A stretch of 64,000 bases of DNA from Phoronis australis (Eukaryota > Animalia > Phoronida): assembly GCA_002633005.1 (NCBI GenBank), contig NMRA01000019.1, positions 272,380 to 336,379 on the forward strand. The letters run 5' to 3'. The notes beneath the pieces are model-generated. The model was not told where the DNA came from. It searched no databases and saw nothing but the letters and a program-made list of their open reading frames with translations. Both the position numbers and the translations under genes were made by a program. The number at the start of each line of letters is the position of its first letter. The first letter of the stretch is position 1. Positions 15,901 to 60,523 of the stretch are shown one piece after another.

Positions 15901-16427
15901 CAGTGAGAATTCTATGGAGGGAGGTTTCACATGGACATTTCACATAAGCGGAGGAAGTACAGTCATAAAAAATAAGCATAAACCATGAAGTTGGCGGGAA
16001 AATCTAAATACATTCTACAAATTTGCACAAAAATTTTAGATCGGGTACTTAGGCCTAGCCTTTATACCTATAGTGACATCAAAGACGCTCTCTACGGTCT
16101 CTGGTGACATTACATATAGGCCGGCGTGCCATTGTACAAGTAACAAAGGTTACATTTTGTCCACGAGAGGGCGAAATACATAGTTTGTGCTCTTTAGTGG
16201 AAAAAGTACGTTAATCCGAACGTATTTTGCTTGTAAACTAAACCATGTAAGGCTGAAACTTGCTTTTTTGAACTTTCAAATCTGTCTCGGTAAATTATTG
16301 ATGCGGACTGTTTGTGTAATTGATTCCTATGTGGTACCATGACGCTGAATGGGAAAAGTATACCTGATTTGCAATACAAAACAGACATTCATTCAGATTA
16401 TACGCCGTGGCCGTCAGCTGGCCAGCC

Positions 16428-16462
16428 TGTCACTGTCACTGTCACTGTCAGTGTCAGTGACT
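16428..16462. repeat. (TGTCAC/TGTCAG)n microsatellite
   Basis: tgtcactgtcactgtcactgtcagtgtcagtgac. Confidence 0.8.
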
Positions 16463-16503
16463 GAGTCGAGAAGACTTCTTCCTTTGTCAATTTGATATCA
16501 TAG

Positions 16504-16574
16504 CGTCAGGCAGATCAACTACAAGACAAGAGGAGCAAAGATATTTCTGTCTGAAAATGCAAACTGGTGCTGCT
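16504..16574 (+). CDS. Candidate 5' exon of PNK-like gene (..SGRSTTRQEEQRYFCLKMQTGAA)
   Basis: Pyrimidine tract plus TAG acceptor and a perfect GTAAGT donor in phase 0. The start codon could instead be ATG 16557. Confidence 0.4.
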
Positions 16575-17399
16575 GTAAGTCCGTGTGAATGAATGTCTGT
16601 AACCTGTGTAACCATGGGCATGGAAGAGGAATTTGACAGGAGTCTTGTAGACTTTTCTGTAGTCATGCTGTGTGGAACAACATTTAGTGTAAGTAGCATT
16701 CAATGGAAATTATTTCCTGACTCAATTATTGTGTTCTGCTCGTTACGTCGTGAAAGTTGTATCAACATTTAGAGCGAACAGCCAGCGGTGATGCATGCAA
16801 AATATGGGAGTCAACCGACACTCACCTTGTTCGTTGCTGCTGTTTAATTGAAAGACAAGGTAATAAAATCATTTTCTCGAATAATGCTCCACATTTTTGT
16901 AACAAAGAAAAGATTATATTCATCATTTTAAAAACAGTACACTCATGTCACGCGCATTTCCTAATTTTTTGCACCAAGGCCATTATGAGGAGAGCTCAAG
17001 CTGAGCGATTTGGGAATATTCATGAATATTCATGACGAGGTTTGAACCTTTGCCCTTTGGGGGCACCTGATGATAAAAAGTGTGCTTTTTTTCTAAAAGT
17101 TGTGCCCAGCAGACTTAGTATAATTAAAGTGGTAACATATGAAACAGAAACCCCAATTAGGGCAATCGAAATAAGAACAGAGTCATGTTTTACCCAAGTG
17201 GCTGTAAGTTGACTAGAGCGTTACATTTTTGAAAGAGTGTTGTGGTTTTAAAAGATGCGCCCTGGGGGTGCAGTGCTGCAATGTACTGGTGCCTTTTTTA
17301 TGTGCTGATGGCACAAAGGCACAGTCCAGGAATATCCTTGCAATTGTTAATAGTTGATGATTCATCGTCATAACTCACTGATTCAGGTCCAATCCCCAG

Positions 17400-17438
17400 T
17401 TTGAGAATTTATTTGACCCATCAACCACTCCATATAAA
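17400..17438 (+). CDS. Candidate mini-exon supplying the first half of the P-loop (FENLFDPSTTPYK)
   Basis: CCCCAG acceptor, GTGCGT donor, phase 0-0. It would give TTPYK-GKT across a 64-nt intron. Speculative. Confidence 0.3.
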
Positions 17439-17502
17439 GTGCGTTTAAGATACTCGAAGTTTGGACAAATGCATGCAAGGCAACTTCTCTGTTGTGTTTT
17501 AG

Positions 17503-17634
17503 GGCAAGACTGCCATCTACAGAAAGCATTTCTCTGCCACTCATGAGCGCTTTTCAGCCACTGAACTGTTCAGTAAAATGCCCGAGTGTGGCCTCCATTA
17601 TGCTGCTGGGTGTGTCGTTCAGTTGTTACAAAAG
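17503..17634 (+). CDS. PNK-like gene exon: P-loop kinase (GKTAIYRKHFSATHERFSATELF...VVQLLQK)
   Basis: TTTTAG acceptor. GKT..Y.KHF..TH.R.S resembles the AAA_33/PNK kinase Walker A region. Ends at a GC-type donor AAG|GCAAGT; 44 codons. Confidence 0.85.
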
Positions 17635-18161
17635 GCAAGTTCAAGGTCATGTGGAACCTTATTGATGAAACTGTGCGTTTAGCCAAATATCTACAAACCC
17701 TGGAAATGTAAATTCTGTGAAACTCGCATAAGAGAGATTTATCCAAATGAGGCAAAATTTGACTCTTTTGAAAGATTGAGTACAGAGACTGGAACAACCA
17801 AACTGCGGAACTTACTTTAAGCAAAAATCTGACTTATGCCTGTCTGAATTCTGCAAATTTCGATGTTCATTCTGAAGGTAAAAATCCTATTGAATTTGAT
17901 TTTTTAAATTTGTACTAATCTACCATTATTTCTTAACAAGACCATGCTTTAAAGGCACTTTCGTTTTTTTTTCAATAAGTGATAGCTACTCGTGCCAAAG
18001 CAAAATATTCGTTTAAAAGTTCCTCACTGTTACGGAGAACAGAGCTTCATTTGAATTCGATTTGCCGTTTCTCAGATCAGAATTAAATCCTTCAAAGATT
18101 GGTTATGAATTTAACAAAAAGCATTTCAGTTTACATTTGGAGTCTCAGTAATAGTCACTCA

Positions 18162-18210
18162 GAGGGGTCCATTAGTAACTTACAGGGGTCTATTAGTAAC
18201 TTACAGGGGT
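18162..18210. repeat. 21-bp tandem repeat, ~2.4 copies
   Basis: AGGGGTC(C/T)ATTAGTAACTTAC repeated. Confidence 0.8.
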
Positions 18211-18424
18211 CTTGCATTGTGAAAACCAATTTTCTCCACTGAATAACCGGCATCAAACTGGTTGTCATAATGCGTGACCCTGTGTCTTTTGCCAAACTCT
18301 CTCCCCATTCTTTTATCTGCACGCCATTGTCCCCAAAGTAAATTCTAGAGTTTGTGAAATTCACAAGAATCATCATTTGTATTTCTATGACTTTTCATTG
18401 GGAATGGCAAGGTTTTACTTCCAG

Positions 18425-18502
18425 AATAAAAAGGTTGTCATCGACGATGATAATCTAAGTCGCCAAGTGCGTGAAGGTTACATCTTACAGATACAAAGTA
18501 AA
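18425..18502 (+). CDS. PNK-like gene exon: Walker B region (NKKVVIDDDNLSRQVREGYILQIQSK)
   Basis: TTCCAG/GTGAGT, phase 0-0. Parallels the PNKP kinase pattern hhIDNTN....R..Y. Confidence 0.87.
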
Positions 18503-19640
18503 GTGAGTATTTAGGTAAACCATTAAGCCCTGTCTACACCTGTAATAGTTCTGTAGCATTTCTGCAAAAAAACACGCAACATGTTTTGGCCTGTCCAAAC
18601 TTTTTCACAACTTCTAAGAACGTGTATTCAAATGTAACAGAAATAATGCAAGAAATTTGGAATCAGAAATAGTGAATGAAAAATGGACTGCAGGCACAGA
18701 AACCTCTGCATTGTTATTGGTGCAGGTGTTATAGTAGGAGCATTAATTAATTGAAAGAGAAAAAGAGGGAAAAATTCAGTAACCTCTTCTTTGTGAGTCT
18801 GTCTTAAGTTTGTACTCTTTTGTTGTTGTGTACAAGCTGGGACATTGCTCCCACATACAGTACCTGTGAGCTGTTCTGATGTTTTTTGTCCAATTGAAAA
18901 TCTGACAGCTCTATGGGGGCTACCATTCCACATTTGTCTCAACGGTCACATGACACAAAGTTTACTTCTGATAGGTCCAATCCTAAAATATGTTTCAGGA
19001 TGTTTCCAAAATATTGCTGCATATCACGCCACACAAAAGCATGCTGCAACAAGTTCATTTTCTAGTACTGGTGTCTTTACAACTGTTTCATAAAAGTTGC
19101 CCTGTGTAGACAGGCGTTTTTGACTTTGTTGAAACTTTCAAGTTAAACGAAGAAAATAATCAATGACCATCTAAATACTGTTATCTCTTGTCTAGCTAGA
19201 ATTTTTAAATTGTCTGTATACCCGGTTTTCGTTACATTTTTGTTTAGATCACAAACCGTTACGAAGTTGATTCAAAATTGTTTATTAGAGATTTTTGGTT
19301 TTACAAAACACTCACAGTTCATCACTGATTCATCAAGCATGTCATCAGGAATTAATATAAGACACTGTCAGTGTTTTGCAAGTCCAAAAATGACTTCTCT
19401 TCAGAGTAAAAAACAAGTTGAGAACAATTTATAGTTGTTATGGTCTAATAAAAGCAAGATTTAGTTTCTACGACAGATTGGGTTTATTGCCTCTTTAAAC
19501 TTTTTGATTTTAAAACCATGGTTATATATAGTTTTTGTCACTTATTATCAAATGCAAAGTGTCGAAAAGGTCGTATATTTATTCTTTGTCAAATATTTTT
19601 ATTTTGAAATTACCCAATTGCTATTGATACATTCATGTAG

Positions 19641-19794
19641 GTTCCTCACATCCAGATAGCCTGCTTAAAGGTCACGCCCCATTTGGGCGAGTCACAGATT
19701 CATTGGTCAGCACAGACCAGATTAGCTGAGAAGGTTCTTCGAGGCGAAGACAAAGCAACCACTGTTCACAGGAAGTGGTGGAATGCATCATTTG
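19641..19794 (+). CDS. PNK-like gene exon (VPHIQIACLKVTPHLGESQIHWSAQTRL...WWNASF)
   Basis: TGTAG/GTAATT, phase 0-1, open frame overlapping ORF 19683. Confidence 0.83.
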
Positions 19795-20728
19795 GTAATT
19801 CAGCCATGTTACGTGAACAGAACCCTCCCCTAGTTAACAATAAGAATTCACATATCTGTAGACACTTGGAAAATAATGCTGCTTATAGAGAGACAGCTGG
19901 GCAACACAGCGTTACGATTATTGACAATGATACTAATCGTGTATGTTTTACCACCGAAACATGTCCCTACATTTTATAAAAATTGTTGTCGTTATTCAAA
20001 CTTTTCTCGTGTTCGTCAGTGCGAGACCTTTTGATACTAATCGCTATTGCTTGAAACTGCATGAAGCCATTCACATTCAATACGCCCCTATGTTGAAAAT
20101 ATTCCATAAATACATTCAGTCGTGAGCAATATGTAGTTAGTGTCCATTCCTGTTACAAGCTATTAGTTGTTGCTTAGTGTAATGAATGTTCTGAATGGTT
20201 ACTGACAGTTCACTTTTTCAAAATTTCGTTGCAGAATGTTCGCTAGCGAAAGTTTCATTACGTCAAAGGGCCACTCACCAAAGACCCACTGTAATTCATA
20301 GTATATGTATTTTTGGTTAGGAGTAAAGAGGATTTGAGTGAAGTTTTAAAATAGTTCATCCAATTAGTTGTTATTGTATTGGAGGCTAGAGTGCATGTGC
20401 TACTGAACAATTGTTAGAAGTATGAACGCCTCAAACACAGTGTGTGGAAAACATTGTGTTATACAGTACTTGTGTACACAGTGGAGGAGAAAGCCCTACG
20501 ATAAAGTCACGCGATTTTCAGATGGCCCGCCATTTTGGGACATGAATAAATATTTCCGAAATAAATTTTTCATAGTCCACGAAATTCGTACAAGGTCCAA
20601 AAACTGTTTTTCAATGATCCTCGAATTTCGGTATAATATTTTGACTCACTTTCTTGGTGTATGTCTGAGGGTATAAGTTTCAGAAGTATGTTTGTCTGGT
20701 GAAGCCAATTTGTCTTCTCATTCTGTAG

Positions 20729-20805
20729 AGGAGCCTGATTCTGGTGATGGATTTGACAAAGTGTCTTCAGTTACCACCAGTTTGGAGTATTCGACACCTT
20801 ATAAG
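20729..20805 (+). CDS. PNK-like gene exon: end of kinase domain (EEPDSGDGFDKV...PYK)
   Basis: Strong pyrimidine tract plus TAG. The join gives FEEPDSGDGFDKV, matching the PNKP kinase C-terminal FExPxxxEGF motif. GTATTT donor. Confidence 0.8.
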
Positions 20806-22261
20806 GTATTTTGGAAAATTTTTCCTGTTTTCAATGCTTTTAAATACTCATATCAGTGCTCGGTGCTTAGCTTAATGCCAACTTGCCAAATTTGTCTTCC
20901 CGAAAATCCCAGGTCCCCAAATGAAATCTAAGGTTGCCAAAACTGACGTTGGAAGTCACCGACCAAAGAAAAGCTGTGCCGTTCTCAGCGTTATAAACAA
21001 ATTACACAAATTAAATCTTCTTCCATATCAAGTTTTCAAGTTGTCTTCCATACTTAGGACGTATGCACCGTTCAAACTCCTGCCAATGGAGAATGTGGAC
21101 GATTGAATACATTGGAGGCACGTGTTTCATGGTCCGACCTTGCCTGATTTTTGTTTCCGTCTATTTACTTCCTATTGTAATTTAAGCGCATTCGATTTGT
21201 GCTTATATCTGAGGGTAGCAGATTCCCCTATTTTCATGAAATAAATGGAACAATTGTGAACCACTGCTTATGTTAGCTTAGATTGGTTTGAAACACTTGT
21301 TTTGTGACTAAAATCGCTGAGTATCATTTTACATTTGGTTGTCTTGCACCATGCATTTCATATTTGCTAATGTTTTAAGTCACTGGTTTAGAGTCAGGAG
21401 GCTAGTATTTTCTGATTGTCTGCCAGCTCCTTAGGAAGGAAGGCTGTTATAGAGAAATTCTTATAAGCATCTTGGTAACATAGGATCGAGCTGTGTTGAA
21501 TTAAAAGTGCTTGTGCCCTGCTGTAATGGAATGAACTCTTCATAATGAATTTTTTATACTGAATGAAACCCACATGTGTTTTCTCCCTGTACACATTTGG
21601 AAAGATTTTGTAAGAATGATCCCCTGACTTGTTTTTCCTTTCCACAGTCTGAGTTGTGAACCAGCCAACTTTACCCACAACGCTGCATGAACTATGAAAT
21701 TGAAATTTTAATTCAGGGCCTAAGAATGTTTACTGTGTGAGGTGTGCAGTTTGGCAAAGCTGTTAATTAATCGGCGCGGAAAGTGGTTACATCACCCCTA
21801 GCAACTATTCCAAATATTGGAGACGAACAATACAGTGGTAGCCTGTTCACTGGCACACATTTGTTCAAACTGACAAAATTCAACAAAGCTAAGTTATTAA
21901 AATCTGAAGCTCATGCCACATCCTCTGTTAAACCATGTAACTTAGCATATTGACTTTTTTAACAATGAATAACTGGTGATTTTCCTGTTATAACATTTGC
22001 CCCAATGTAATTTCCTGCAGAGGTGTGGCAAGATGGTGTAATCAGGACTGCCTCAAGACAGTGGCACTTTCCCCCCTATTGCTGGGACCTTTTCAAATGC
22101 GCGTTCGTTAGTATACTGTCCTTTGTCCTCTGTGTTTGCTGCTAAGTTTTGGCGTAAATCAATAATTTGCTGTGATTAGTGTCAAAAAGAGTATTTAATC
22201 ACCAAAAAATCGATCAAGATGCCTTTAACATGTTTCTTGTGTACAACTGTCTCTTGTACAG

Positions 22262-22397
22262 TTTGAGGTGCCGTGTCTGTTTATGGAGTTTGCTGCCCTG
22301 CTTAATGAGGAAGGTCATCTGGCTACTGGTATTGTGGAGGCTCTCAGAACGTGGACCACTACATACCCCTATGGAAGGTTGTGTGTCATGCAGAAAG
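22262..22397 (+). CDS. PNK-like gene exon: degenerate HAD motif I/II (FEVPCLFMEFAALL...GIVEALRTW...GRLCVMQK)
   Basis: TACAG acceptor, GTCAGT donor, phase 0-1. GhVEALxxh...G.hhhh follows the HAD-IIIA pattern, but DxDGT is replaced by EFAAL. Confidence 0.83.
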
Positions 22398-22686
22398 GTC
22401 AGTTTTGATGTAACTTGGAAAAGTGTGTGAGCATTACTAGTTGCTGACAAAGCTTTGTGAAGCAAGGAGTAGTTTTAGTAATTAAAAATTTACTGTCAAG
22501 GAGAGCAAATAGTGTCATAATTGTGTACTTCGTGTCAAATTTTGTTTTTAATTTTTAACATTAAAATGATTTGTTCGAAAAGATAGCTTGTCACACAAAT
22601 AACACATCCAAAGATGCATGGATTAATCAAGCTTTTGTGGAAGTTATGGTGAAAATTTATTGTGAAGTGTTCACAAACAGCTTGCT

Positions 22687-22882
22687 CCTCTAAAACATAA
22701 CTTTAAGTATATTTTGTTCCTCTAAAACATAGTATACTTTGTTCCTCTAAAACATAACTTTAAGTATATTTTGTTCCTCTAAAACATAGTATACTTTGTT
22801 CCTCTAAAACATAACTTTAAGTATATTTATTTCTCTAAAACATAACTTTATGTGTACTTTGTTCTTCTAAAACATTAAGTGT
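22687..22882. repeat. Intronic minisatellite, alternating 32/25-bp units (CCTCTAAAACATA core), ~7 units
   Basis: Units start at 22687, 22719, 22744, 22776 and 22801, followed by degenerate copies. Confidence 0.9.
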
Positions 22883-23085
22883 ATTTGATTTGTAACACCA
22901 AGTTCAGACTGTTGTGGATCACATTCATTAGGGGCTGTTTACTAGTGTGCTTGGTTGCTGGCTAAATCGTGAAACCCAAGATAAACCTTTTCTCTCACTT
23001 ATCTATCTAGTGAATTGTCTTGCGTGTTCTCGTTGAACTCTCAAGGTAGAAGCCGTCTTTAACGCGCTAATGGTCTGTTTTTCAG

Positions 23086-23267
23086 TTGATGATGGTCTCA
23101 GTGAGGACCAGGTGGTGGCGCTTGTGAACCGTCTATCGACCCAAGTCCCTTCTACCCCGTTCTATCTTCTGCTGTCTAATCACGACAGGTGTCGTACGAA
23201 CATAGACCCATTAATGGCCGACATGATGCTTCTGCACAGACTCCACTTGTGTGACTTTCAGCATAAA
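23086..23267 (+). CDS. PNK-like gene exon (DDGLSEDQVVALVNRL...HDRCRTNIDPLMADMMLLHRLHLCDFQHK)
   Basis: TTTTCAG/GTGAGT, phase 1-0; lies inside ORF 23070. Confidence 0.87.
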
Positions 23268-24688
23268 GTGAGTAGAATAAAGATTTTTGTTTTCTAGCAG
23301 TCACATTTCAACATTGTTGTTAAAAAGTGTTATTATTATTTAGGTATGAGCAGACTTGTTTAAACATTCTCATTGAAAACTATTGCGTGCAAGCATTCAT
23401 GTTTCAATGTTCTCATTAAATACAAACAAAAAGAAAACAAAAAAAATGACCCATTATTCCGCGTCATGATGGCTGGGCGCAATTGGGATTTCATGCAATA
23501 GAGGTTGCATAAAAATTGAATTGAGTGTCATAGTAGTCATCTGTCAAGACGGCTCATTTAACAGAAAGCTAACAATAAAAATGTAAAAGCTCTTCGCTCT
23601 TCCTATAGTTTGGACGTAATCATGAACAAACTTGATATTTTTAAACTGATGCACCGCACGATAAACATAGATGACCATTACACTATAACTCGATCATCTG
23701 TTGCAAAATAACTACACGTGAATTAATCGTTTAGTAAGAGTGGTCGTGCTTGCAAAATGCACAACCACATTAAAGTGTTCGTGAGGACAATCCAGACCTC
23801 TACAGACATGTGTTGATCCTACGCATGTCCTTTTTGAATTGGTTGCCAGGATTGTGCGAGATTGTTCGAGATAATGATTTTGCGATGACAGAGTTGTAGA
23901 TTCAGGCATTGTTTATATACTGTGGTTGAACATTTGCTAAGAGCTGTCTACAAACACAAAACTTTAAGTGATCGAAAGGTATTGCAGTAAAATGTTCACG
24001 GCTGTCACTGCGGCATCAAAAATCTTTAGTACTATGGCAATACACAGTTATGAATGATGATTATAATCATATTGTTTACATCATGTCGCTAATTGCGCTG
24101 TACACGTGAACATTGGAAATTAGGTCAACGTTCTTGGTTAGTCTTTCACAATGTGCGGACCATTGTGTGTTAAGAGATTACGGCTGTTATGATGCATCAT
24201 TTCAGCGAAATTAAGTGGAAAAAATTTACAAGTGGAATTGACTGTCATGACAAGGAAACAATAGTCTGGTCAGCACACCATCTGTTGGCCACGTCATGTG
24301 ACTTAATGAATTTAAGTCTATGGCAGAAATCTTAACGTATTCGTTAGGTCGCGTGATGTGGCCAACAGCTGCCGTGCTGACCAGACTTAAAAATGTTTGC
24401 AATACGGTTTGTGTTGACTTATTATACTTTGCTGTACTCTTTGTATTGGTTAAGACTTCACCTAGTGTCAGTGGAGACTTAGCGGAAATTCCGTCAGGAA
24501 CTTGACAACGGCACCTCCTCATAACGTGGAGTTGACCTCATGACCCCACAGATCTGAATGTTTGTTTAACCACAAAAGCCACTGACCACTTTTTGTGACC
24601 ATTTGGTGAACTGAAAATTCTGTTAAGCTTCATAATTCGATCTGTTCTTATCTAGCGGTAAACATGCTTATGCTTTCGTTTTTTTCAG

Positions 24689-24790
24689 GGTTCGCTGTAT
24701 TGTGGTACACTTACAGACAGTAATCATGTTCTGAAGTCCTGTGCATTAAAATGTCTCAAAGCAAAATTGTTGCTCAAGGATCCCACTGTG
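24689..24790 (+). CDS. PNK-like gene exon: degenerate HAD motif IV (GSLYCGTLTDS...KDPTV)
   Basis: T-rich CAG acceptor, GTAAGA donor, phase 0-0. SLYCGT corresponds to ShhVGD. Confidence 0.8.
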
Positions 24791-25459
24791 GTAAGATTTC
24801 GTCATCCAAACTGATTTTCCTTGATTTGAAACTTTGCTCTCAACATACAGACAGTATGTTGCCTGGACTGTGTAGAATAGACCCACAACTCTTGCAAAAC
24901 ATTTGCTGCTCGAGATCTTTGCTTATGGAAGGAAAACAGTGAATCCTATCCCATAAGTCAACATTGCAACCTAACCATCTATTCACTTCTTCTGTGGCCA
25001 CCATTTTGCAAGGGTACGCTACTAAGCTCCCAATTATACTCACGAAGCACTTGCCTTTCATTTGCGTGATTTTGCGTTGTCTTACTTTTTCACAAGGCTC
25101 TCGGCTCTGCACAATGCAGTCCTGGTAATAGCACCCCTTTGAGCCTGATTAAATGTACTTTTGCCCTTTTTCTTCGAAAATGGAATGCTCCCATCCACTC
25201 TTCTTAGTCAGCATTCTGTCCCCCTTTTGACTAGAAGTGCTTGGACAGGGAAAGGGCACAGGCAGATTTTTAGATCAAATTAGTGCATCTTTACCTCAAA
25301 ACCTGCTGGAGTATTAACAAAAGGTACATGGATATGGTTTAACAAGATGGCTGCTTGATATGGATTTTCTGCTCCAACTTCTATTGTGATAGAAGCTATG
25401 TAATCTCTGCTTTAACCTTGGTGCATTTCTCGTCGTGTCCACCATGACATTTCAATAAG

Positions 25460-25522
25460 TCTTGGACGCAAGTGAATGGTAAACATGAAGAATGTGCTTT
25501 AGAAAGTGCAATCTGCCAGACG
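25460..25522 (+). CDS. PNK-like gene probable exon (SWTQVNGKHEECALESAICQT)
   Basis: Perfect GTAAGT donor in phase 0. The AAG acceptor is weak, so the 5' boundary is uncertain. Confidence 0.55.
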
Positions 25523-25659
25523 GTAAGTCTGTTGGCCATTTATGGACATTCATACACCTTGCTGATTCACCCAAGTGAATCTGCCTATCATTTATTTTAC
25601 AAATATTTTGCACAATCTGTGATTTCACTTAGTTTATTTTATGATTACTGTACTTTCAG

Positions 25660-25859
25660 ATCACCAGCATTGGTCAGCCCTGTGATGTGACACTGCCCGA
25701 CGTTTTAAGATATGTTGTATTTACAAGTGGAGATGATGATCTATTACCCACAATTCCGTTCTTCTCTCGTGTAACTCCCTGCAATCTTGTCTTCCAATGC
25801 ACTGTTGATCAGTACCGTCGGATCTTCTTGATATGCTCATCTTATCAGAGTCTTGAAAG
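25660..25859 (+). CDS. PNK-like gene exon (ITSIGQPCDVTLPDVLRYVVF...SYQSLER)
   Basis: TTTCAG/GTATTC, phase 0-2, compatible with the next exon. Confidence 0.75.
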
Positions 25860-26889
25860 GTATTCTGTGCCTTAAATGTTTTGTTTCATTTTGTAGGATA
25901 CTGTCCTGCTATGTTTTAGAACTTTGCACTCAAATAGTTGCACTCCATGAAACATTCTCTGCTAAAAATATGTAGCACGGTAAAGATGTGTCTATATCTG
26001 GAGTGTGTATAGTGAACCTTAGCAGTTCATTCTTGGTCAAGGCCATACTCTACACAGTAGCTTACCATTCAGGTCAAGCCAGCGTATTGAGCCTGGTCTT
26101 GAACAATAACTGACTGCCAGTATGGATCATAGACAACAGATTCGCAACTCCGATATTTTCTTGCGAAATATGCTAGAGAAGGCCCCACCCTCTATACACA
26201 GCAAACACGCCTTCTGGTTGGTGTATTGTGACGGCAAATACTTGCTTCTATTTTACTGTCCAGTACAACAAAAAAAAAATTTCGGTATTGAAATGCTGTT
26301 CAAAGTCTTCCAATAGTAGAACTCTTGATATAGTGAATACTTTTGGCAATGCTACCAGACCACCAGACGTACTTGGCGGAAGTGAAATGTGCTATGCATG
26401 CCAGGTGTTGCTAGAGAATAGTGATGTCATGGCTTAGGTGCAAGATCACAGATTTCGTCCTTTGAAAATATACCGAGTTGGCAGTCCATGTACTATATTC
26501 TTTGGTGTCAGCTCTTTCCAAGTTGAGCCCAGTTTCATTACTGTGTATAAGGGTTCTCAATCAAAAGTCATTTCTGACAGAATGTCAGTCCATGGCAGTT
26601 TTCAACTCACAGAGGAAGGTTTTGTAAACCTACAGTCGCTGTCCATGAAGCAGTGGCTGCTAAAACATCTTGTATCAGTTGTGTTTATATTTGAAGACCG
26701 TGTTGTGTCGTGCATTTTTAACAATTCCTTTCGAAATTGCTGTTGGTGACCTGAGTAAAGACCCTGCATGGAGTTTTAAATGTTTTCATGTTTATATACT
26801 CAATGAAATGTTGTTGTATCAGAAGTATCTTCTAATAGGCATTACATTTGTCTGGTAAATAAAGTTGTTGTATTGTTTCTGTATTTTAG

Positions 26890-27591
26890 GTATAATGCTC
26901 TGTACGCGTCCAGCTGCAGTAAACATAATGAACCCAGCAAGTTTGCGCAGACATGTGGAGCCATGCGAACAACATTACCTGCCTCTAGAAATGCTGGTGC
27001 TAGAAAGCGTCTTCCAACTTGGATGTTACCTGTTAGTGAAAGACCAGAGCATCAGGAAAATAGTAAAAAAACAAGAGCCAAAAACCAAGAATCAAGTCGA
27101 ACGAGCAGTGACAGTGATCTTAAGAGGAAAGAAGAGACTGCAAAACGTTCTAAGACTGGTGCTAAATATGAAGGTTTACCAAAGAACAGGATTGTTCGAG
27201 TGCACAAACGTCGCCGTGTTCAAAGACTTGAGTTTGTTAGTTCAGACTCAGACTCAGGATCAAAATTTGATGATTTCAACAAAACCATGCATCAGATGTC
27301 AACAAAGTCGAAACGGTTTGAGAAAGACAATCACAAAGTTCAAAGTGAAACAACAATGGACAGTGCATCAGACTTGTCCTATAATTCAGACGATGACATC
27401 CAGTTAATTGTGGGCAAATCACCAGTATACACAAAAGCTGGTTACAAGAAATTTTCGTCAAAACACACCGATTTGCAAACTTCATCTGAGGTCCCGAATA
27501 GCTCTGGCCCCTGTTCATCTACACCACCTAGTGTCCTGGATGATATGTTTTGTGAACGAGTGAAAAAACGACCTCCTCCAAAGAAACAAAG
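26890..27591 (+). CDS. PNK-like gene large exon: disordered K/R/S-rich tail with RKRLPTWML motif
   Basis: TTTTAG acceptor, phase 2-2, within ORF 26873-27682 (the longest ORF in the window). Donor AG|GTCTGT. Confidence 0.87.
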
Positions 27592-27980
27592 GTCTGTGTA
27601 CTTAGGTCACAACACTGTTAAGTTCATCAGTTCTTATAAAATCAAATTTATGGTACAAATGAATGCAGTGAGAGCTTACTGACTGCCGTGGTAAATATTC
27701 TTCAATTTGGCACAATGAAAATTTAATGAGTTTGCTAAAGGTTGGAGTTGGTGCCAAATTCTTGTAGAAATGTACAATATTGACTATTCCAAATTCAAGA
27801 ATCACTGGAAGGACGACAAAATTACCCGCTCTGTAGATTAAAAATACATTTTTCGAAATTTGAGAAATATGGTGAATGCCAAAATTGCCCTTGTCCCAAA
27901 TTCTATAAGCAAGGGTTTCCTTATCCCAAATTCTAGATACTAGCCAAGTTGCGGAATTATTACCCCATTTTCAATGGTAT

Positions 27981-28110
27981 TTAAGGTTATGTAGGCCCCC
28001 TGTGGATAAGCCTGTGCATTAAGCTAAATATTTGCAACTCTATAGCATTGAACTCATGAAGAGGTTATTTTTTCTGAAAGCAGAAAGCCTGTAGAATTTG
28101 ATTTATGGCT
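27981..28110 (+). repeat. Dispersed repeat end (TTAAGGTTATGTAGGCC...), related copy at ~30367-30495
   Basis: Both copies start TTAA(G/A)GTTATGTAGGCC and share AGAAAG(C/T)CTGTAGA. TTAA-RR termini recall Kolobok-type elements. Confidence 0.4.
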
Positions 28111-28655
28111 TTAGTCCGATCTTCCGTTGATTGGGTCTGGTGACCACATCGTTTTAGTCAAATTTAGCAAAATGGTACAGTTATAGCAAAGTAATGGCAA
28201 CAATACAATTACTAAATTTCGCTTGATATAAGTATTCCAAAACACAATTAAATATTTCTAATTTGTCTTTTTGGTTTCGTTTTATGCAAATTTTATTTTG
28301 TTAATAATACTCCTCTTTGGTAGTCTCTTGTGCAAAAGTGGCGCATTTCAAAAACAATATTCTAACAGGGTTTTGGGGAACATTGCGTTGAGTAGAGTAT
28401 CTGAAAATTTCATGTAAATCCGATCACTCATTTCTGAAATATGATGTTCTGAAGTTGCCTCGTGTGTACATTTTTCAAGGGTCCTACACTTGTCTTCCAC
28501 TCTCAACTTAACTGCAAAACTTAGATGTTTCACCAATTAAGGTCATCAGTGTGGGTTAAGAATGTGTTTGCTATGATTGTGTCTAATTCAATATTCATTT
28601 GGAATTGAGAGATAACTTGAGATTGAATTTTTGGAAGCAGTGGCCTGCCCTATAA

Positions 28656-30184
28656 TTTTTATGCGCCCACATATTTATATGTGGACGCATTATGCCGTCA
28701 TCTCTGTCCGTCCGTCCGTCCGGGCGGCGTCCGTCCGGCGTCCGGCGTCCGCTGCTCTATCTCCAAAACCCTTTGACATACGTTCATGAAATTTGGCACA
28801 TATGTTCCGTTCATGAATGGGACGGCATGTGCGAACTTTCGGACGGATCCGACTACCGGTGTGCCCCCTTGTGGCAATTTTAGTTTTTTACGCTTACCTT
28901 TGTATCTTCAAAAGTCCTGAACGGATTTTCATGAAATTCGGTATGTAGGCACCTAGTAGTGAGATGACGCTATCCTGCCATTTTCGGATGGATTCGACAT
29001 AGTTTGCGCCACCTAGTGGCCATTTTTAGTGTTTTCGAGTCTGTTTTTGTGCTTCCACCCCTCTATCAACCAAACCGCTCAAAGGATGATTGTGAAAATT
29101 GGCATGTATGTGCTTACTATGTAGAGGACGGTTGACGATGATTTTCCGACGATTTCGACTACTGTGGCGCCTCCTAGTGGCAGTTTTGTTTTTTTTGCGC
29201 CTATGGCTGTATCTCCTAAACCGTTCGCAGGATCTTTACAAATTGTGTAAGTATATTTATATGATGTTAACAACGGAAGATGACGACTTTTGGTCGGATC
29301 CGACTACCGGTGTGCCCCCTAGTGGCAATTTTAGTTTTTTACGCTTACCTTTGTATCTTCAAAAGTATTGAACGGATTTTCATGAAATTTGGTATGTAGG
29401 CACCTATTAGTGAGATGACGCTATCCTACTGTTTTCAGATGGATTCGACGTAGTTTGCGCCACCTAGTGGCCATTTTTACTGTTTTCGAGTCTGTATTTT
29501 TGCGTCCACCCCTCTATCAACCAAACCGCTCAAAGGATGATTGTGAAAATTGGCGTGTATGTGCTTACTATAAGGAAGACAGCTGACAATGATTTTCAGA
29601 CGATTTGGACTACTGTGGCGCCTCCTAGTGGCAGTTTTGTTTTTTTGCGCCCATGGCTGTATCTCCCAAACCGTTTGCAGGATCTTTACTAAATTTAGCA
29701 AGTGTATTTATGTGATGTTGACAACGGACGATGACGACTTTAGGATGATTCTGATTACCGGTATGCCTCTAGTGGCAATTTTAGTATTTGCCTCTAGTGG
29801 CAATTTTAGTATTTTACATTGACCTCTGTATTTTCATAGGTCTTCAGGTGTATACTTTGTGTTACTTCGTGACTGTGAAGGAAAAGTTCCAAGTAGAAAT
29901 TTGTTTCTGGCATTCTAATGCTGTGCTAATCTCGTATGTTGGTAAATTTGTTTTTAATTCTATGTTTCTGTGGTGCTTTAAGCAACTGGTGTATAGGATG
30001 TGCTTGTATTATGAAGATTACTCACATTTTGCCCCTAGCCTATTGAGGAGACAATGACCATGCCTTTCCATTTTGCAAAGTATGCCTTCTACTGGCCACT
30101 TTATGGTACCAATAAACAACCCTAGAAGGATACCGTATGCGGTGCAATTGTGGGCGCATTTCAACGCTCTGCGTTGCTCTTGTT
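28656..30184 (+). mobile_element. Helentron-associated non-autonomous element (HINE/DINE-1-like), copy 1, with internal 451-bp tandem repeats
   Basis: T-run and subterminal IR ATGCGCCCAC (28661) / GTGGGCGCAT (30150), 5' hairpin 28661-28690, (GTCC)n microsatellite, internal tandem array, 3' hairpin CAACGC-TCT-GCGTTG then CTCTTGTT. A second copy is at 52.5-54.2 kb. Confidence 0.8.
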
Positions 30185-30955
30185 ATTTTTTTTTAAGTTT
30201 TAAATGCTATTTAATTGTTCTTAATGGCAACAGCAATAATATCTAATCATGGTAAGAAACATTTCGAGATGGATCTAGTTGGGTTAAATGGCCAAGGCTT
30301 CGTTTTGTTTTTCAAAAGGTTCAACACATGAAACAAATGCAGTTTTAAGTTTATCTGCCATTTGGTTTAAAGTTATGTAGGCCTTTATTGAGAGTCTGTG
30401 TATTTAGCAAAATACATGCAAAATTATGGAAATCAATGATATTAACTCAATAAAGGTACATACATTCTGAGTGGAGAAAGTCTGTAGACTCTGGACATTT
30501 TTCTAGACTCCTGCATAACATTGAAAAGGGAAATGTGTGCAATATCTTCTTTGAGGCGAGTAATGGTTTACTTGAGTTTACTCTGTGCATTATTTCTTTG
30601 GCTAGGGAAATTTACTCTCTATGTGTTTAAATTCTGTTTAAAATGTGCTGTAGTTTACTCACATTGGTTGATTTCAGTAACTGTCTATTTGTAAGCTGGG
30701 ATTATGACTGCCACTGTAAATGTTACTGTTTCTGTTAGGTTAGAAATAAAAAAATGGAACCAATGAATACTTTGGCCATGCTGTGAAACTGGTGACTCAT
30801 TTCATATGTTGTTTGCAAAATCTGCTCCAGCTGAGTTAAATTAGAGTGGGAATGTTCCGAAAAGCAGCTTTTAAAATAACTGCCCTCTGACTTGTCAAGG
30901 CAAAGTTGGAGTATATTCAGCTCACAAATTCTATTGCAAGGTATCAATTTTGCAG

Positions 30956-31214
30956 GGTCGTTGCAACAGACGTATCATCTGTCCTTGACCTTGGTAAGAC
31001 CCCATCTCCACCTTCATGTTCTTGGACAGGTGGAGGAAAGAAGACCATTGAAACAGACCATTCTCATGGCTCCAACAGTCTCTTGGACTTAGACTCCGAA
31101 GACAGTGACTATGGCTCTGGGTTTGGTGCTAGTGGGAAAATTGTTTCCCCAGAAAATGAGAAAAAGCGACAACAAGCACTGGAGGCGCTGCGTGCTTTGG
31201 ATGAAATATTTTGA
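30956..31214 (+). CDS. PNK-like gene terminal exon (VVATDVSSVLDL...ALEALRALDEIF*)
   Basis: TTTTGCAG acceptor in phase 2 matches the previous exon. Stop at 31212-31214, AATAAA at 31274. Confidence 0.82.
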
Positions 31215-31273
31215 TAATCTGAAGACAGGCTAAACATTTTATTCGAGTCATATATTTGTTACCTGACAATGCT

Positions 31274-31279
31274 AATAAA
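31274..31279 (+). promoter_or_regulatory. Putative polyadenylation signal of PNK-like gene
   Basis: AATAAA about 60 nt after the stop codon. Confidence 0.5.
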
Positions 31280-32579
31280 TAATCTTATTTGTACCATGAG
31301 TTACATTTAAGGGCATCAGTCCCAATGCTTAACAAAGTAACAAGATTCAAAACTTGACAATACCCCTTAGACCACGATTTTTATTAGGCATGCCGGTGGC
31401 ACTTTTTTGGTGCATTTGCTAAGGGGACCTGGCTCAACCCTCCCCCAAATCCGCCTATGCTGCTTTTAGTTTCAACCTTGTGTCCTTCATATTATGTACA
31501 TGGATTTGTTACCATTCAAAGTTTGACTACCTTCAAGGTACCTATATCTCCCTACTAGTAACCGTGGGTAGCTCAGCCCTGCCTGTGCAAAATATCTCGC
31601 GCATGCTATTCCCCTCTGGCAGATGTTTATACTTTCCTCTCTGACCACTTCCCCCGTCTAGCGTACACGTATTTCTTTCAGTTTTTGAAGGAGAGAACAA
31701 CCCTGCTCCTGCTCATTCTCTGCCCATAGTGTCATTTCTCCCTATCACGGCCGAACGAGCGATCAGCTGGACTATTTTCGTTGCTGTTTCATTTTTCCAA
31801 TAAATTTTGCAAAACATCACTGAAATTTTATCAGATTTTCGAAAATGCATAACTCGGAAGCAGTGAACCATGTTGAGTCATCTCGTGCATGGCAACTTTA
31901 TGATAGTCTGGGAGCCGAATGAAAACATGGTTCAGTGTTTCGATTTGGTTCGCCCCTCAGGGTGACATCTTGGAGAATACTAGAATTAAGATGGCTATCA
32001 ACCTAGTGCACCAACGCACAAAACGTCTGAAGCCACAAAACATTTTCTTCACACGCAATTTAGAAACAGAAGAAAACGCAAAAATCGCACTTTTTAAGGA
32101 AAACTTCCCTAACTTTGGATTGGAATAAGGTTTAGACACAATTTTCAAAACATTGACAGCACATTTACGTCTTGTCTCAACTGAAAATAAATCAAATTTG
32201 TTGAAATGACATTAATATGACAATGAGTGCGATTTGGGATCCAAAATTGAAGACACGATTTCGTTTACCTTATTGACAATACTTCGAGCGACTTCCCAAT
32301 GGATATATTAAGTTTTGCACATTATGGAAAAGTTTTTAAAACTTGGTAAATATGCACGATGGACGAGATTTGAGATTTTTTTGTAACCAAAAATATTTAT
32401 ATGTGTGTGGGTTTAATTCGTCACGTCATAAGTCTTAAAGCTTTGGAATTATTTACAAGTGGGTTGGTTGTTTCCTTATTTTTAAACCTTTGTTCAAAAT
32501 TTCATTTAGTCGCCAATCCCTAAAGGCATTAGATAGTAAGACGTACTTTTATCGTTGACAGGGCATATGTGACGTGTTG

Positions 32580-51984: not shown

Positions 51985-52491
51985 GTATTGCAAAAAAATT
52001 CCTTGGAGTGTCTGACGTGGCACGGATAGAGAAAGTCACCTTTTAGTAGTTTGTTTTGCACTAAAAAAATAACGACTTTCCCGTCCAGTTCTCTGAAACG
52101 AAATAATGCTCTGTAACTCTCGACATCCCTCAAAAGTTTGGAAAATTTGAAAACTCCTTTCAAAGTCTGATAACGGGCAAGCGTGACCTACGCTCTTAAG
52201 TAATTACACGGCAACTGTGGGAAAACACCACCCACCAACGACCATGAGTGTCCAATTTGTGAAATAGGAGATATGAGGTTTTAGTTGATTCCTGCTTTTA
52301 TCTTTCAATATTGATGCCAGTGATGCATTAGCAGGTTAGAGAACGAGGATTGGTTGATATCACCACAACAGAGTTAAGTATCCTTTCAAATGTACTATTG
52401 ATAAAAATATAGTGACTGCGCTTGCACGTCTTGTCTAGGTTCACCTTTACACTGATGACCTAACCTAAAGAAAGTGATGCAGCGCGCTACC

Positions 52492-54160
52492 GGGTGCATG
52501 TTGCCGTCATCTCTGTCTGGGCGTCCGGGCGTCCGGCGTCCGCGGCTGTATCACCTAAACCCTTTGCAGGATCTTATTGAAATTTGGCAGGCGTGTTTCT
52601 ATGGAGTTGACGACAGAGGGCGACGAGTTTCGGACCGACCCAAGTACGGTTGTGTCTCTAGTCGTAATTTTATTTTTTTACGTTTGCCTCTGTATCTTCA
52701 AAGGTCCTCAACCTATTTTCATGAAATTTGTCACATAGGCATCTATTAATAAGGTGACGCTATTGTCCCGTTTTCGGATGGATTCGAGGAATTTTGCGCC
52801 ACCTAGTGGCCATTTTTTACCATTTTCGAGTCCGTTTTTCGGCGTCCACCCCTCTGTCAACCAAATCACTCTAAGGATGATTGCGAAAATTGTCATGTTT
52901 GTTCTTACTATGAAGGGGACGGATGACGATGATTTTCCGACGACTTTGACTACTGTGGCGCCTCCTAGTAGCAGTTTTGTTTGTTTTTGCGCCCATGGCT
53001 GATAAATGTAGCAAATGTATTTATATGTAACAACGGTCGACGACGTCTTTCCGACAGATCGGTCTACAGGTGTGCCCCTAGTGGCAATCTTATTTTTACG
53101 TTTACCTCTGTATCTTCAAAGGTCCTCGATTGATTTCTATAAAATTTGGCACATAGGCATCTATTAATGCTGTGACGCTCTTCTTCCCTTTTTGGATAGA
53201 TTCGAGATATTTTGCGCCACCTAATGGCCATTTTTACCGTTTTTGAGCCTGTTTTTTGGCGTCCTTCCCTCCATCAACCGAACAACTCTAATGATGATTA
53301 TGAAAATAGGCATGTATGTTCTTACTATGAAGAGGACGGTTGACGACGATTTTCCTACGACTTCGACTACTGTGGCGCCTTCTAGTGGCAGTTTTGTTTG
53401 CTTTTGTGCCCATAGCTTTATCTTCTAAATACTCTACAGAATCTATATTGAATGTAGAAAATGTGTTTATATGAAGTTAACAACGGAAGGCGATGACTTT
53501 CAGTAGGGTCCGACTAACACTGCCCCCTACTGGCAATTTCATTTTTTTCTGTTTTCCTCTGTTTCTCTAAAGTTCCTGACGAATTTTTATGAAATTTGTT
53601 AAATAGCTTTTTTACAGAAACGGTGACATTTTCCGGTTTTCAGATAGATTCGACATATTTTGCGCCACTTAGTGACCATTTTTACTGTTTTCTAGTCTGT
53701 TTTTGTCGTCCGTCTTCTGTTAACCAAACCACTCTTGGGATGATTATGAAAATTGGCTTATATTGTTAGTGTGAAGAGGACGGCTGACGATGATTTTCCG
53801 TTTTCAATTACTGTGACGCCTCCTAGTGGCAGTTTCTTGCGCCATTAGCTGTATCTCCTAAGCCCTCTTCAGAATGTTTTTTAAATTTAGAAAGTGTTTT
53901 TATATGACGTTGACAACGTTCAGACGGAAAGACCTTTGTCCGACAAAGGATTTTCCCTAGTAGCAATTTCATTTTTTCCGTTTTGCTAAAGTTTCTTGAC
54001 GGATTTTCATGAAATGTGGTAAACAGCTTTCTGTTAAAAAACGGTGACATATTCCCAGTTCGCACTATCTGGCGGCCATTTTTTATGAACAGACACCCTA
54101 GAAGCAAACCGTTTGCAGTGCATTCGTGGGCGCATTTCAACGCTCCGCGTTGCTCTTGTT
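52492..54160 (+). mobile_element. Helentron-associated element (HINE-like), copy 2, 5'-truncated and more diverged
   Basis: Same GCCGTCATCTCTGTC head, same tandem subunits and same 3' GTGGGCGCATTTCAACGCTC(C)GCGTTGCTCTTGTT end as the 28656 copy. Confidence 0.8.
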
Positions 54161-54500
54161 ACCCAAGGGGTTCGCATGTATCTAAAGTTCTTTGGCGTAT
54201 TTTCAAAAAAATTGGTTATTCGTTGTGTATTACCCTGTTACCGCACATTTAGGCTCATGGGCCTATATCGGAAATAATGCCTTTATTCGCGGGATTTTTT
54301 TTCCCAAGTGGTTCGCATATTGGCCCATGTGCCTAAGTTTCGCGTATAATCCCAGTTCCGCCCAGACGCCTATGATCCTAATGGCGCGGCAATACTGCAT
54401 ATAATTATCTGTATTGAATCAAATGATTTACACGTGGTAAAAAGTCATTCAACGAGCAAAAGCGAGTTGACAAAATGCTAATCATGAGCCTCGTTTTCAG

Positions 54501-54707
54501 GAACTAGATGATTTGGAGGATCGATATGGTGAAATATGGGACCCCAAGTTGATAATCCTGAACATGGACCAGGCCCCGAGAACGAATGAGATCACATACG
54601 ATATTGAGTACGGACCTGATGGAATTCCAGTTGTCTATTACAGAAGAAAAATTAGAGGTTCCTTCTTTGAGAGACTAGAGCTTAGACATTTCCCGTTTGA
54701 CGTTCAG
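54501..54707 (+). CDS. pLGIC exon: loop A to Pro-loop (IWDPKLIILN...IRGSFFERLELRHFPFDVQ)
   Basis: TTTTCAG/GTAACT, phase 0-0; WxP loop A and the FPFDxQ signature. Confidence 0.95.
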
Positions 54708-55296
54708 GTAACTTGTGCCTCAACAGCAATGCTCTTTTGAATAAGGAATCAAAATGAACTACCATCTAACGGCAATGCAGTGCTGAACCCGTTGCTATCA
54801 ATGACAAAAAAGTAATATTTTAATTGAATCGGTCCAGATCATACCCATAACCGCCGTGTATGTATAGGATAGGTATTTGGTTCCATGTGGTATCTCGTAC
54901 AATGCTCAGACGCCTTGATTCTTGAATTCGATGGATTTCGTTGAACAGAGGTGTTCGATTGCCTGAGCTTCCTGCCAATCCCGGCCGCAGTCATTGTCAC
55001 CTAGCTGTATCTGCAAAAAATAGTTAAGCACTTCTCTTTTGAAATCGTATTTGCATTTGTGGAAAATAGTTGAATAGCAGCAATCGATGGTGTCTTGACA
55101 CTAAACCCCCGTATTCAGTGGTATGAGTTACAACAAAAGAAACTGAAGAGTTTTAAGCACAATTTACAGAGCCATCTTCAGATTTTTTTTTATTAAATTT
55201 GCATCTCACAATGAAGTACCGTAATTGTCTTTCCTGGTCATCTTGATGTATCTTGCCGATGCCGTTGTCATCATCGTTCCCTTTCTTCGCCTGCAG

Positions 55297-55437
55297 GAGC
55301 TGTCGCTTCATATCGTCTCGGATCATCCTGCAAAACAAGTGTCGCTGGAACTCTGCCCGGATAATAAAAGTACTGTCCACACCCATACCTTCAGGGACGT
55401 CGACGAATGGACTTTGTTCCAATCCGTCAAGGAAAAC
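55297..55437 (+). CDS. pLGIC exon (ELSLHIVSDH...FRDVDEWTLFQSVKEN)
   Basis: CTGCAG acceptor and conserved EW. The 3' donor is uncertain (GTGATT after 55437 or GTGATA after 55461). Confidence 0.8.
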
Positions 55438-56520
55438 GTGATTGTTTTTCGTACTACAACTGTGATAATTGGGATAAACGCATTACTCTCGGCGGTGTTC
55501 CTACTGATCTCGAATGCTTTCGATTATATTTCTCTACTTAAGCCTACATTTCTAGTTACATTTATGTTCAAATCTCAAAACTGATGAAAGATTGCGTGTT
55601 TCTGTGATTTTGTTGCCATCTTTCAGACTGATGCGATGATAAGACGTGCTAGTATCACAAGACGCTCCCCTAAAAAGATAACTGAAATCAAGTCATTAAG
55701 TAAAATTTTTAGACGGTTTTAAAAATATCCGTTATTTCAACGTCTTTTTTAAAAGTTTGGCAATAAATATGTCTATAAATCTTAACTGAGCTCAAGAGAT
55801 TTTTAAATTTTCAGAAGCTACAAAACCACTTTACGTCACAAAAACATTTTTTATTAAGATCAGTTACCTATGAAATTAGTCTCAAAGAGTTCCCTAGTCA
55901 AAATAGGTAGGAATTTTGGGCTTTTACAGAACTTACAGTTCGTTATTGCTTTAGACAATGCTTTACAAGACTTGTTACGCGTTTTATATCGTCCGCCAGC
56001 GAGCATGATTTCTTGCAGTAAAACAATGTCAGCTCGTTGCAAGACCAAACGCCACCTTCCGCTTGAGTGAGAAATACGTTGAGAACAATTTTATAGAGCT
56101 ACGTAATGTAAATCAAGAGTTAATTTCTCCGACGGATCGCGGGTTTATTGCTTGGAGAAAAATACGTTTCGTCTAATTGCTATTGTATTATGATTCATGC
56201 TATACGTTTTTCTAACAAGACAAAAAATAAGAGACTACTTACTGAAATCGGTAGCTCACTGAAGTTCTCTTTTTAATCTTATTGATCTATCTTCTACGAA
56301 TGCGGCTTCTTGATGTCCAATGTTTTTTTCTCTGGATGCGGATTCCCCCCGATTTTTTCTCGTTCTACCAGAATTCTCCGTAATTTTGCCCGAATGGTGG
56401 GACTGGAGGCTTGGTAAATGCTACCCCGCCTCCCACCGCCTATTAATACGTCTGTGACTATACTCATCTCCTATCAGGTATGGGATAAACCTCATCACGC
56501 TGAATTTATTGTCCCAACAG

Positions 56521-56730
56521 GTTAAACCCCATGCCAGTGACTTTGGTTCAGACTCTGACGGCAATATCGAAGACAGAAGGGGTCACTTTCCCGTGGAGAA
56601 ATTGGGAGAAGGGTCGCAATCCATGATCGACATGAGCCGGGCGACGAGGATAAGGAAAAACCGACTCATTTTCAGCTGTTTTGTGGCCAGAAATTATGGA
56701 TATTGGATTTTCAACGTCTTCACGATTTTG
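56521..56730 (+). CDS. pLGIC exon: extended loop C, beta10, start of M1 (...LIFSCFVARNYGYWIFNVFTIL)
   Basis: CAACAG/GTGAGA, phase 0-0; pre-M1 R..GY...N motif. Confidence 0.85.
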
Positions 56731-58833: not shown

Positions 58834-58989
58834 CTCCTGATCAACTGCCTCACGTTCACCCCGTTTGCCTTCCTGCATACACAGACCAGCGCCAGACTTG
58901 GCGTGATGATGTCGCTACTGCTGACCACTGTCGCCAAAAAGATGGCGCTTGGAATGATGCTTCCGCCTATATCATACCTGACTTATCTG
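58834..58989 (+). CDS. pLGIC exon: M1-M2 and M2-M3 loop (LLINCLTF...SARLGVMMSLLLTTVAKKMALGMMLPPISYLTYL)
   Basis: TTTTCAG/GTGAGA, phase 0-0; R0', L9'T10' and LPxxSYxTxLD. The frame differs from ORF 58809. Confidence 0.95.
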
Positions 58990-59183
58990 GTGAGAAAATG
59001 TTGCAACATTGTTTGGTACTTCGTGAACAATGTGTTTATTAAATCTAGAATTTCTTAACCACTGTAAATTGTATAAGACAGCTTCACCGTTGGCGGTGTT
59101 GGGCCGATATATAAATTCAGCCTATATTTCGCCAAAGTGCCCTCTTGTACGCACAATACACTACAATCAATAGAAACACGTGT

Positions 59184-59269
59184 AGAAAATCTCCTTGTCT
59201 CCGGTGGCACTTGAACCAAGGTTGCACGTGCGACGAGGACCAAACGTCTAAACCATTCGGCCAGGATGC
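59184..59269 (-). mobile_element. tRNA-derived SINE head / pseudo-tRNA
   Basis: Minus strand has a TGGCCGAATGG A-box and GGTTCAAGTGCC B-box; the acceptor stem does not pair. Confidence 0.55.
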
Positions 59270-60105: not shown

Positions 60106-60271
60106 AGGTTATACAACGTACGTGCTTGTACCACTGTGTTATTATATCTCGATTCGTGATATGCAAAAGTATTTGAACTCTGACTTCCCCCGAGTTCAAA
60201 TACATTAACTTTTGCATATCACGAATCTCGATATAATAACCAGTGGTACAAACACGTACGTTATATAACCT
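60106..60271. mobile_element. Near-perfect palindromic MITE (~166 bp hairpin)
   Basis: AGGTTATACAACGTACGTG...GAACTC / GAGTTC...CACGTACGTTATATAACCT. Confidence 0.85.
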
Positions 60272-60523
60272 ATATGTATACGACAGACAGGAGAGTCGGA
60301 CCCGAATGTGTGGACGATGTCAGCCGATAAGAACAGGCAGTTGGTGCAACAACAAAAATAAAAGTCAATGGAACTACAGAACCAGTCATTTCAGCACTGC
60401 AGTGGCACATCCCACAACCTAGTAACGTGATCACTACACACTTGATGCTCCACCGGGCAATTTGAAGAAACCGCGCCGTTTCACTATAAAACAGAATGAG
60501 AATGCATGTGCGACAGATCCCTA

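Follow-up and report, generated by a model that had tools for sequence, protein, structure and literature searches.

CYREN/MRI (C7orf49; isoform 1, 157 amino acids) is a small, almost wholly disordered vertebrate adaptor that supports or restrains the joining of DNA ends; none of the papers that we found takes up the question of where it came from. Its layout consists of an N-terminal APLF-type Ku-binding motif (A-KBM), a disordered middle and a C-terminal X-like motif (PMC4831024; PMC13276856, excerpt; 'excerpt' here and below marks a source available in part). Here we describe a gene of the phoronid Phoronis australis, lying in a stretch of 64,000 nucleotides from contig NMRA01000019.1 (assembly GCA_002633005.1, positions 272,380–336,379 of the forward strand; 'the window', numbered from its first letter), whose predicted product likewise displays an A-KBM-like motif, then a linker predicted to be disordered, and ends in hydrophobic-x-E-I-F. 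We propose that it is a CYREN-like break-repair adaptor, in which the A-KBM-like motif would dock on Ku80, the terminal LRALDEIF would provide a further contact, and a kinase-HAD head, likely dead, would be brought along to the break; we put the probability of this reading at about 0.55.

The Met that follows the Trp of the motif is common to the Phoronis protein and most non-primate MRI (10.64898/2026.07.22.740027, excerpt). The two proteins differ, however, in that the Phoronis protein has 705 residues, with the motif at 424–432 rather than near the N-terminus, and carries an ordered head of 400 residues before it; its linker has roughly double the length, the core Arg is replaced by Lys, the gene model yielded no multimerization segment and the end lacks the last Phe-Ser. 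The Ku-binding motif of APLF reads RKRILPTWML in full. Its basic triplet and Pro-Thr-Trp-Met core (Arg182-Lys183-Arg184, Trp189 and Met190 in the excerpt available) are shared here, but the spacing from triplet to Pro is shorter by one residue, Arg184 has its counterpart in Lys or in a shifted Arg, and the gene model shows neither an FHA nor a PBZ domain.

Mammalian PNKP has a P-loop kinase and, probably, a HAD-IIIA-like domain in common with the head, a likeness that is linked via a bacterial profile. However, its order is FHA, phosphatase and kinase, whereas the Phoronis protein has the kinase followed by the HAD-like domain, no FHA and altered catalytic residues, and its recruitment would go through the Ku motifs. 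The kinase-then-HAD order is that of T4 Pnkp; phmmer gave no significant match between T4 Pnkp and the gene model (E 0.12). The order in the Phoronis protein may have come about by transfer or by permutation. hnRNPUL1 likewise combines a PNK fold lacking the general-base Asp with a link to break repair and disordered flanks (PMC13066744, excerpt), but the Phoronis protein has no SAP or SPRY domain and instead has a HAD-like domain and Ku-type motifs, and no homology between the two is claimed. By its predicted features the protein does not qualify as CYREN proper, given its large head and the failure to find a multimerization segment, or as PNKP, given its domain order and catalytic residues.

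Motifs of the predicted disordered tail

The tail contains RKRLPTWML at 27002–27028, as a preliminary description of this DNA had reported, in the same frame as an internal SVLDDMF. Scored against a profile built from the three published A-KBM cores printed in PMC4831024, RKRLPTWM reaches 26.7, compared to 21–22 for the three known motifs when each is left out in turn. This score was reached by 3 of 20,000 shuffles of the tail, and the peptide ranks first among the 79,996 8-mers that the window contains in six frames, where the runner-up scores 17; a motif this close to the A-KBM is much better than chance would give. The basic patch, the hydrophobic residue with its Pro, the Trp and the hydrophobic residue after it are all present. 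Binding by APLF is reported to require the basic triplet plus the Trp (PMC5207133, excerpt), and the Phoronis motif has both. It also carries the Met after the Trp that is reported to raise the affinity of MRI for Ku80 about 30-fold (10.64898/2026.07.22.740027, excerpt). The tail has two Trp in all, one of them being that of the motif. Judged from these features, docking on Ku through the A-KBM-like motif is probable.

RNA reads (three runs from one study) join this motif to the end of the protein. Loose read ends at 27592, seen in 9, 11 and 10 reads of the three runs, continue from 30957 across the last intron (27591–30956), and the A-KBM-like motif and the terminal motif therefore lie in one protein. 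The terminal ALRALDEIF noted in the preliminary description is present, but begins one codon before the 31188 given there (31185–31211, followed by the stop codon TGA at 31212–31214). Compared with the MRI end, LRALDEIF obtains a score of 18, the best such match of the protein. A score as high was reached anywhere in the sequence by 410 of 20,000 shuffles, but within the last 11 residues by only one of 20,000, and no shuffle among 20,000 reached the A-KBM and terminal scores jointly. Of the 3,642 stop-ended frames in the window, five score as high (LRALDEIF's own included).

The internal SVLDDMF had also been described as similar to the terminal motif. Its position and its likeness to the gene's own LDEIF hold, but it lies outside the five best MRI-end matches and is not MRI-like. 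The placing of the motifs in a disordered tail agrees with negative FoldIndex-type values over residues 381–581, and residues from 381 onward are disordered or borderline by this crude index. Acidic Ser/Asp clusters are present as described (27104–27118, 27239–27259 and 27380–27397), alongside nine basic clusters. Among the 27 exonic read variants listed, none falls in the A-KBM-like motif or SVLDDMF, a number too small to be informative; those in the tail comprise eight replacement and three silent changes. LLDLD in the last exon (31080–31094) fits the clathrin-box pattern, presumably by chance in an acidic tail.

The kinase-like head

The bacterial family used for comparison was selected by a scan with a motif chosen beforehand (120 loci, 62 of them complete), thus the nearest relatives of the head may lie elsewhere. 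The best solved relative of its profile is mouse PNKP (E 1e-31), followed by GmhB/HisB phosphatases; a model of one member (pLDDT, the predicted local distance difference test score, 93.9) matches the folds of PNKP and T4 Pnkp, and members give a Pfam AAA_33 match plus weak HAD matches. The kinase half of the profile aligns with residues 16–168 of the Phoronis protein (hhalign probability 96, E 1.6e-9; 0 of 1,000 shuffles), and residues 11–325 align with the kinase-HAD profile from end to end (284 columns, probability 97.6, E 1.6e-11). We regard a PNKP-type P-loop kinase fold as established by these profile alignments. A HAD domain is likely, since in global alignments none of 109 trials reached the kinase-HAD score when the kinase was kept and the second half shuffled, and the middle of the head alone outscored 175 of 175 shuffles, although 44, 70 and 384 of 1,000 shuffles scored as high in local searches, and a second global setting gave no alignment, with 39 of 60 shuffles as high. 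Exons 6 and 7, compared singly with the profile, gave nothing significant.

The P-loop G-x4-GKT is kept in the head. In mouse PNK, Asp396 is reported to be the general base and Arg395 and Thr423 to contact DNA (PMC2764422, excerpt). When these residues are mapped onto the head via the alignment of the bacterial profile to mouse PNKP, the Arg-Asp pair of PNKP-type kinases reads Ala51-Thr52, and the Thr of the VVxDNT motif is replaced by Asp85 in a VVIDDDN strand. In the HAD-like domain, the motif I position reads LFMEFAA, without DxD; CRTN stands where the bacterial family has CRKP, the HAD Lys position being changed; and SLYCGT, without Asp, stands at motif IV. With the general base, the DNA-contact residues and the HAD motifs lost, catalysis is unlikely and tight binding of DNA ends doubtful, and the head is likely an inactive enzyme. 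It had been called a PNK-like DNA-end-binding module in the preliminary description: the profile alignments argue for its PNK-like character, while its missing general base and two missing DNA-contact residues weaken the case for DNA-end binding.

Searches with single exons added little. Pfam searches with each of the 11 exons gave nothing useful, and when exons 2, 9, 10 and 11 and the pooled exons were compared with PDB sequences, only chance-level matches came back. Exon 9 (residues ~320–400) matched no family, PDB sequence or ESM atlas entry, gave a pLDDT of 49.7 when folded alone, and returned one repetitive chance match from a full HMMER search over 1.84 billion representatives; exon 11 likewise gave no usable match in the ESM atlas. 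Three metagenomic loci retrieved with exon 7 (25–26 residues) were rejected, being frames with stops or unrelated genes.

The bacterial fusions of aldo-keto reductase, AAA_33 kinase and HAD (Acidobacteriota, Myxococcota, Gemmatimonadota) share the order and spacing of the head over ~300 residues at ~20% identity. They differ in keeping the Arg-Asp pair (62 of 62 complete members), in often having a reductase motif upstream (43 of 62) and in having no long tail. About 220 stretches with such a fusion are present in the genome collection, without constant neighbours, and their HAD domain is often without the first Asp (e.g. L007:812-2668 and L013:794-2659; set L002–L081).

The adaptor reading and its alternatives

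In the adaptor proposed here, modelled on the human proteins, Ku would first bind the break and Leu-Pro-Thr-Trp-Met would fold into the groove of the Ku80 vWA domain in the manner of the MRI motif, its basic triplet turned towards those aspartates of Ku80 with which the Arg of WRN is in contact. The terminal helix and its Phe may then bind the XLF-type Ku-binding motif (X-KBM) site of Ku80, or ATM/MRN, contacts that have each been reported for the MRI C-terminus (10.64898/2026.07.22.740027 and PMC13276856 respectively, excerpts), and the flexible linker of ~270 residues would let the two motifs bridge partners across the break. In human cells, MRI is reported to require both of its ends if it is to back up XLF (PMC12179622; 10.1101/2023.12.12.570754; excerpts). 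The part played by the head is the least certain: with its P-loop kept it may bind nucleotide and act as a scaffold or oligomerization unit, rather than as an end healer or tight DNA-end binder, and could perhaps provide the self-association for which MRI has its multimerization segment. It makes sense for one protein to combine a Ku motif with a DNA-end-processing fold, and for a break-repair protein with a dead PNK domain there is the precedent of hnRNPUL1, whose own dead PNK domain is reported still to bind nucleotide and nucleic acid (PMC13066744, excerpt).

A number of observations weigh against this reading, including the HAD searches in which shuffled sequences did as well. Word-index searches gave six candidates each for exon 9 and exon 7 and 193 for four pooled kinase exons, none of which scored, and no orthologue was found with these queries, which as single or overlaid exons are of low sensitivity (simulated relatives of 40% identity averaged 35 bits). 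Read variants in the head comprise 10 replacement and 6 silent changes, a ratio of replacement to silent polymorphism (pN/pS) of 0.47 (p 0.12) that points to weak constraint.

Others concern the kinship to CYREN. The MRI multimerization segment is described as a YCMN strand plus a hydrophobic helix at residues 49–81 (10.64898/2026.07.22.740027, excerpt); three patterns for it gave no match in the forward frames of 16200–31400 or in the gene model. Both tail exons, searched singly in Pfam at E up to 1, gave no match to the MRI family, although this search is of low sensitivity. The likeness of LRALDEIF to the MRI end is modest, and the final Phe-Ser of MRI is absent from it. The CYREN-like adaptor tail claimed in the preliminary description is upheld in its A-KBM-like motif and in an MRI-like end within the same protein. 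The shortfalls are consistent with a protein that has a real A-KBM and is recruited by Ku, but is no kin of CYREN. A-KBMs are known in unrelated proteins (PMC4831024), and a PNK-like pseudo-enzyme could have gained the Ku motif alone, as did APLF and WRN. LDEIF and LDDMF, which resemble each other, would then be a repeated acidic-hydrophobic motif for another partner. Both recall the PIKK-recruiting ends of NBS1 and Ku80. We consider this explanation unlikely, as it leaves aside the rarity among shuffles of an MRI match at the very end, the still greater rarity of both motifs together, and their occurrence in the MRI order. The two readings agree on Ku docking; what separates them is the ancestry of the protein and the second partner.

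The remaining points concern Ku docking itself. As the preliminary description had cautioned, Lys occupies the consensus Arg position (K-R-L-P-T-W), and the tail contains no strict R-x-x-P-x-W. Arg184 of this core is called critical in APLF (PMC6264785, excerpt), and the Arg of WRN is reported to pack on Ku80 Asp106/109 (PMC13377182, excerpt); furthermore the bare core occurs in more than 600 human proteins, mostly unvalidated (PMC4831024). The charge could be retained via the Lys, or via the following Arg if the register were shifted; nature here offers a test case for Lys standing in for the 'invariant' Arg of the Ku motif. If the motifs do not bind Ku, RKR might belong to a signal for nuclear import or be where another protein binds, in a fast-evolving pseudo-enzyme that acts outside end joining, e.g. 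in RNA metabolism. The Lys and the nine basic clusters of the tail are consistent with this, as is the action of PNK-fold domains on RNA (RNA-repair kinases are among the matches of the fold search), and no Ku, ligase or RNA-repair family was found beside the bacterial relatives in the 126 flanking frames scanned of 156 chosen. However, we think it rather improbable given that RKRLPTWM outscores the known A-KBMs and every other 8-mer of the window, and that one of only two Trp in the tail sits within it next to the favoured Met.

That the head is active, as a second PNKP in T4 order recruited directly by Ku instead of via FHA, is highly improbable: the P-loop and overall kinase pattern are kept, a Glu adjoins the lost Asp and D396N mouse PNK is reported to retain 23% activity on recessed ends (PMC2764422, excerpt), but the Arg-Asp pair that is invariant in the complete bacterial relatives is Ala-Thr here, the equivalent of Thr423 is Asp, and in the HAD-like domain none of the positions for DxD, Lys and the terminal Asp has kept its residue.

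The adaptor reading can be extended, tentatively and with considerable doubt, to the origin of CYREN. Vertebrate CYREN might be the left-over tail of an older bilaterian protein whose two Ku motifs brought a dead kinase-phosphatase of bacterial/T4 layout to DNA breaks; the Phoronis gene would be a full-length survivor that has shed the multimerization segment, and its head a nucleotide-binding scaffold or an end-masking cap that sets the choice of repair pathway. A long form in an invertebrate, with a folded head of pseudo-PNK type, would if true give CYREN an ancestry, add an undescribed accessory factor to animal end joining, and suggest that Ku holds an end-healing enzyme that is dead. Neither an invertebrate CYREN nor a PNK-like fusion turned up in any paper of a search that most subscription journals and supplements lay outside; the parts are known, and the combination appears to be undescribed in print.

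Gene model and surroundings

The gene model was derived from splice signals and then checked against the RNA reads, whose depth at the gene is low (a few reads per base). It is an open frame of 11 coding exons on the + strand (Table 1), in animal-type DNA of ~40% guanine plus cytosine. The reads support 10 of 10 introns and the gene is expressed. Eight introns correspond to listed read joints and intron 19794–20729 to a joint with 2+2 reads, the last being the intron spanned by loose read ends. Intron 17634–18425, inside the kinase domain, is of GC-AG type and is seen in 3 and 4 reads of two runs. An acceptor at 20684, which would lengthen exon 5, was rejected in favour of the one at 20729, which the reads support. 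No coding exon was seen in these low-depth reads upstream of the first ATG; read depth starts in the bin 16222–16632, into which no listed joint leads. An AATAAA lies at 31274, downstream of the stop codon.

Table 1. Positions in the window of the coding exons and motifs of the Phoronis gene
Feature	Position	Strand	Content and support
Exon 1	16593..16688	+	First strand and start of P-loop; joint 16688-17503 in 3, 2 and 2 reads
Exon 1 start	ATG 16593	+	First in-frame ATG after a stop; alternative ATGs 16614, 16620
Exon 2	17503..17634	+	End of P-loop (GKT); Ala51/Thr52 at 17557-17562; read joints and bacterial-profile alignment
Exon 3	18425..18502	+	VVIDDDN strand at 18434-18454; read joints and alignment
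Exon 4	19641..19794	+	Kinase lid region; read joints and alignment
Exon 5	20729..20805	+	EP-x3-GF kinase end; acceptor 2+2 reads, donor joint 5, 4 and 4 reads
Exon 6	22262..22397	+	Start of HAD-like domain; LFMEFAA at 22277-22297; read joints
Exon 7	23086..23267	+	HAD-like domain; CRTN; read joints and alignment
Exon 8	24689..24790	+	End of HAD-like domain; SLYCGT; read joints and alignment
Exon 9	25660..25859	+	Predicted ordered region, ~residues 320-400; read joints and hydrophobicity index
Exon 10	26890..27591	+	Bulk of Ser/Lys/Asp-rich tail, predicted disordered; read joints
A-KBM-like RKRLPTWML	27002..27028	+	Residues 424-432, exon 10
Acidic Ser cluster SSDSDSG	27239..27259	+	Follows basic cluster 27200-27220
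Internal SVLDDMF	27530..27550	+	Residues 600-606
Exon 11	30956..31214 (to stop)	+	Loose read ends; depth on expected strand, bin 30727-31327
C-terminal ALRALDEIF and stop	31185..31214	+	Residues 697-705; similar to MRI/CYREN end

In the transcribed leader (16250–16592) there is a short repeat of GTCACT, besides several upstream ATGs, and the intron after exon 6 contains short tandem repeats with a unit of ~30–60 bases (22680–22880). Within the last intron, 28655–30184 is an abundant, strand-biased transcribed repeat whose depth of >1,000 comes from other copies; similar text is found near 52459–54249, and the element is likely a mobile or dispersed repeat.

Elsewhere in the window, exons of a gene for a Cys-loop-receptor-like channel lie on the + strand at ~54470–62000 (weak Neur_chan_LBD match, E 0.002). 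This gene includes two similar transmembrane-type stretches, near 58731–59039 and 61696–61983, and a near-repeat (59587–59835 and 61986–62228) that is perhaps a partial duplication.

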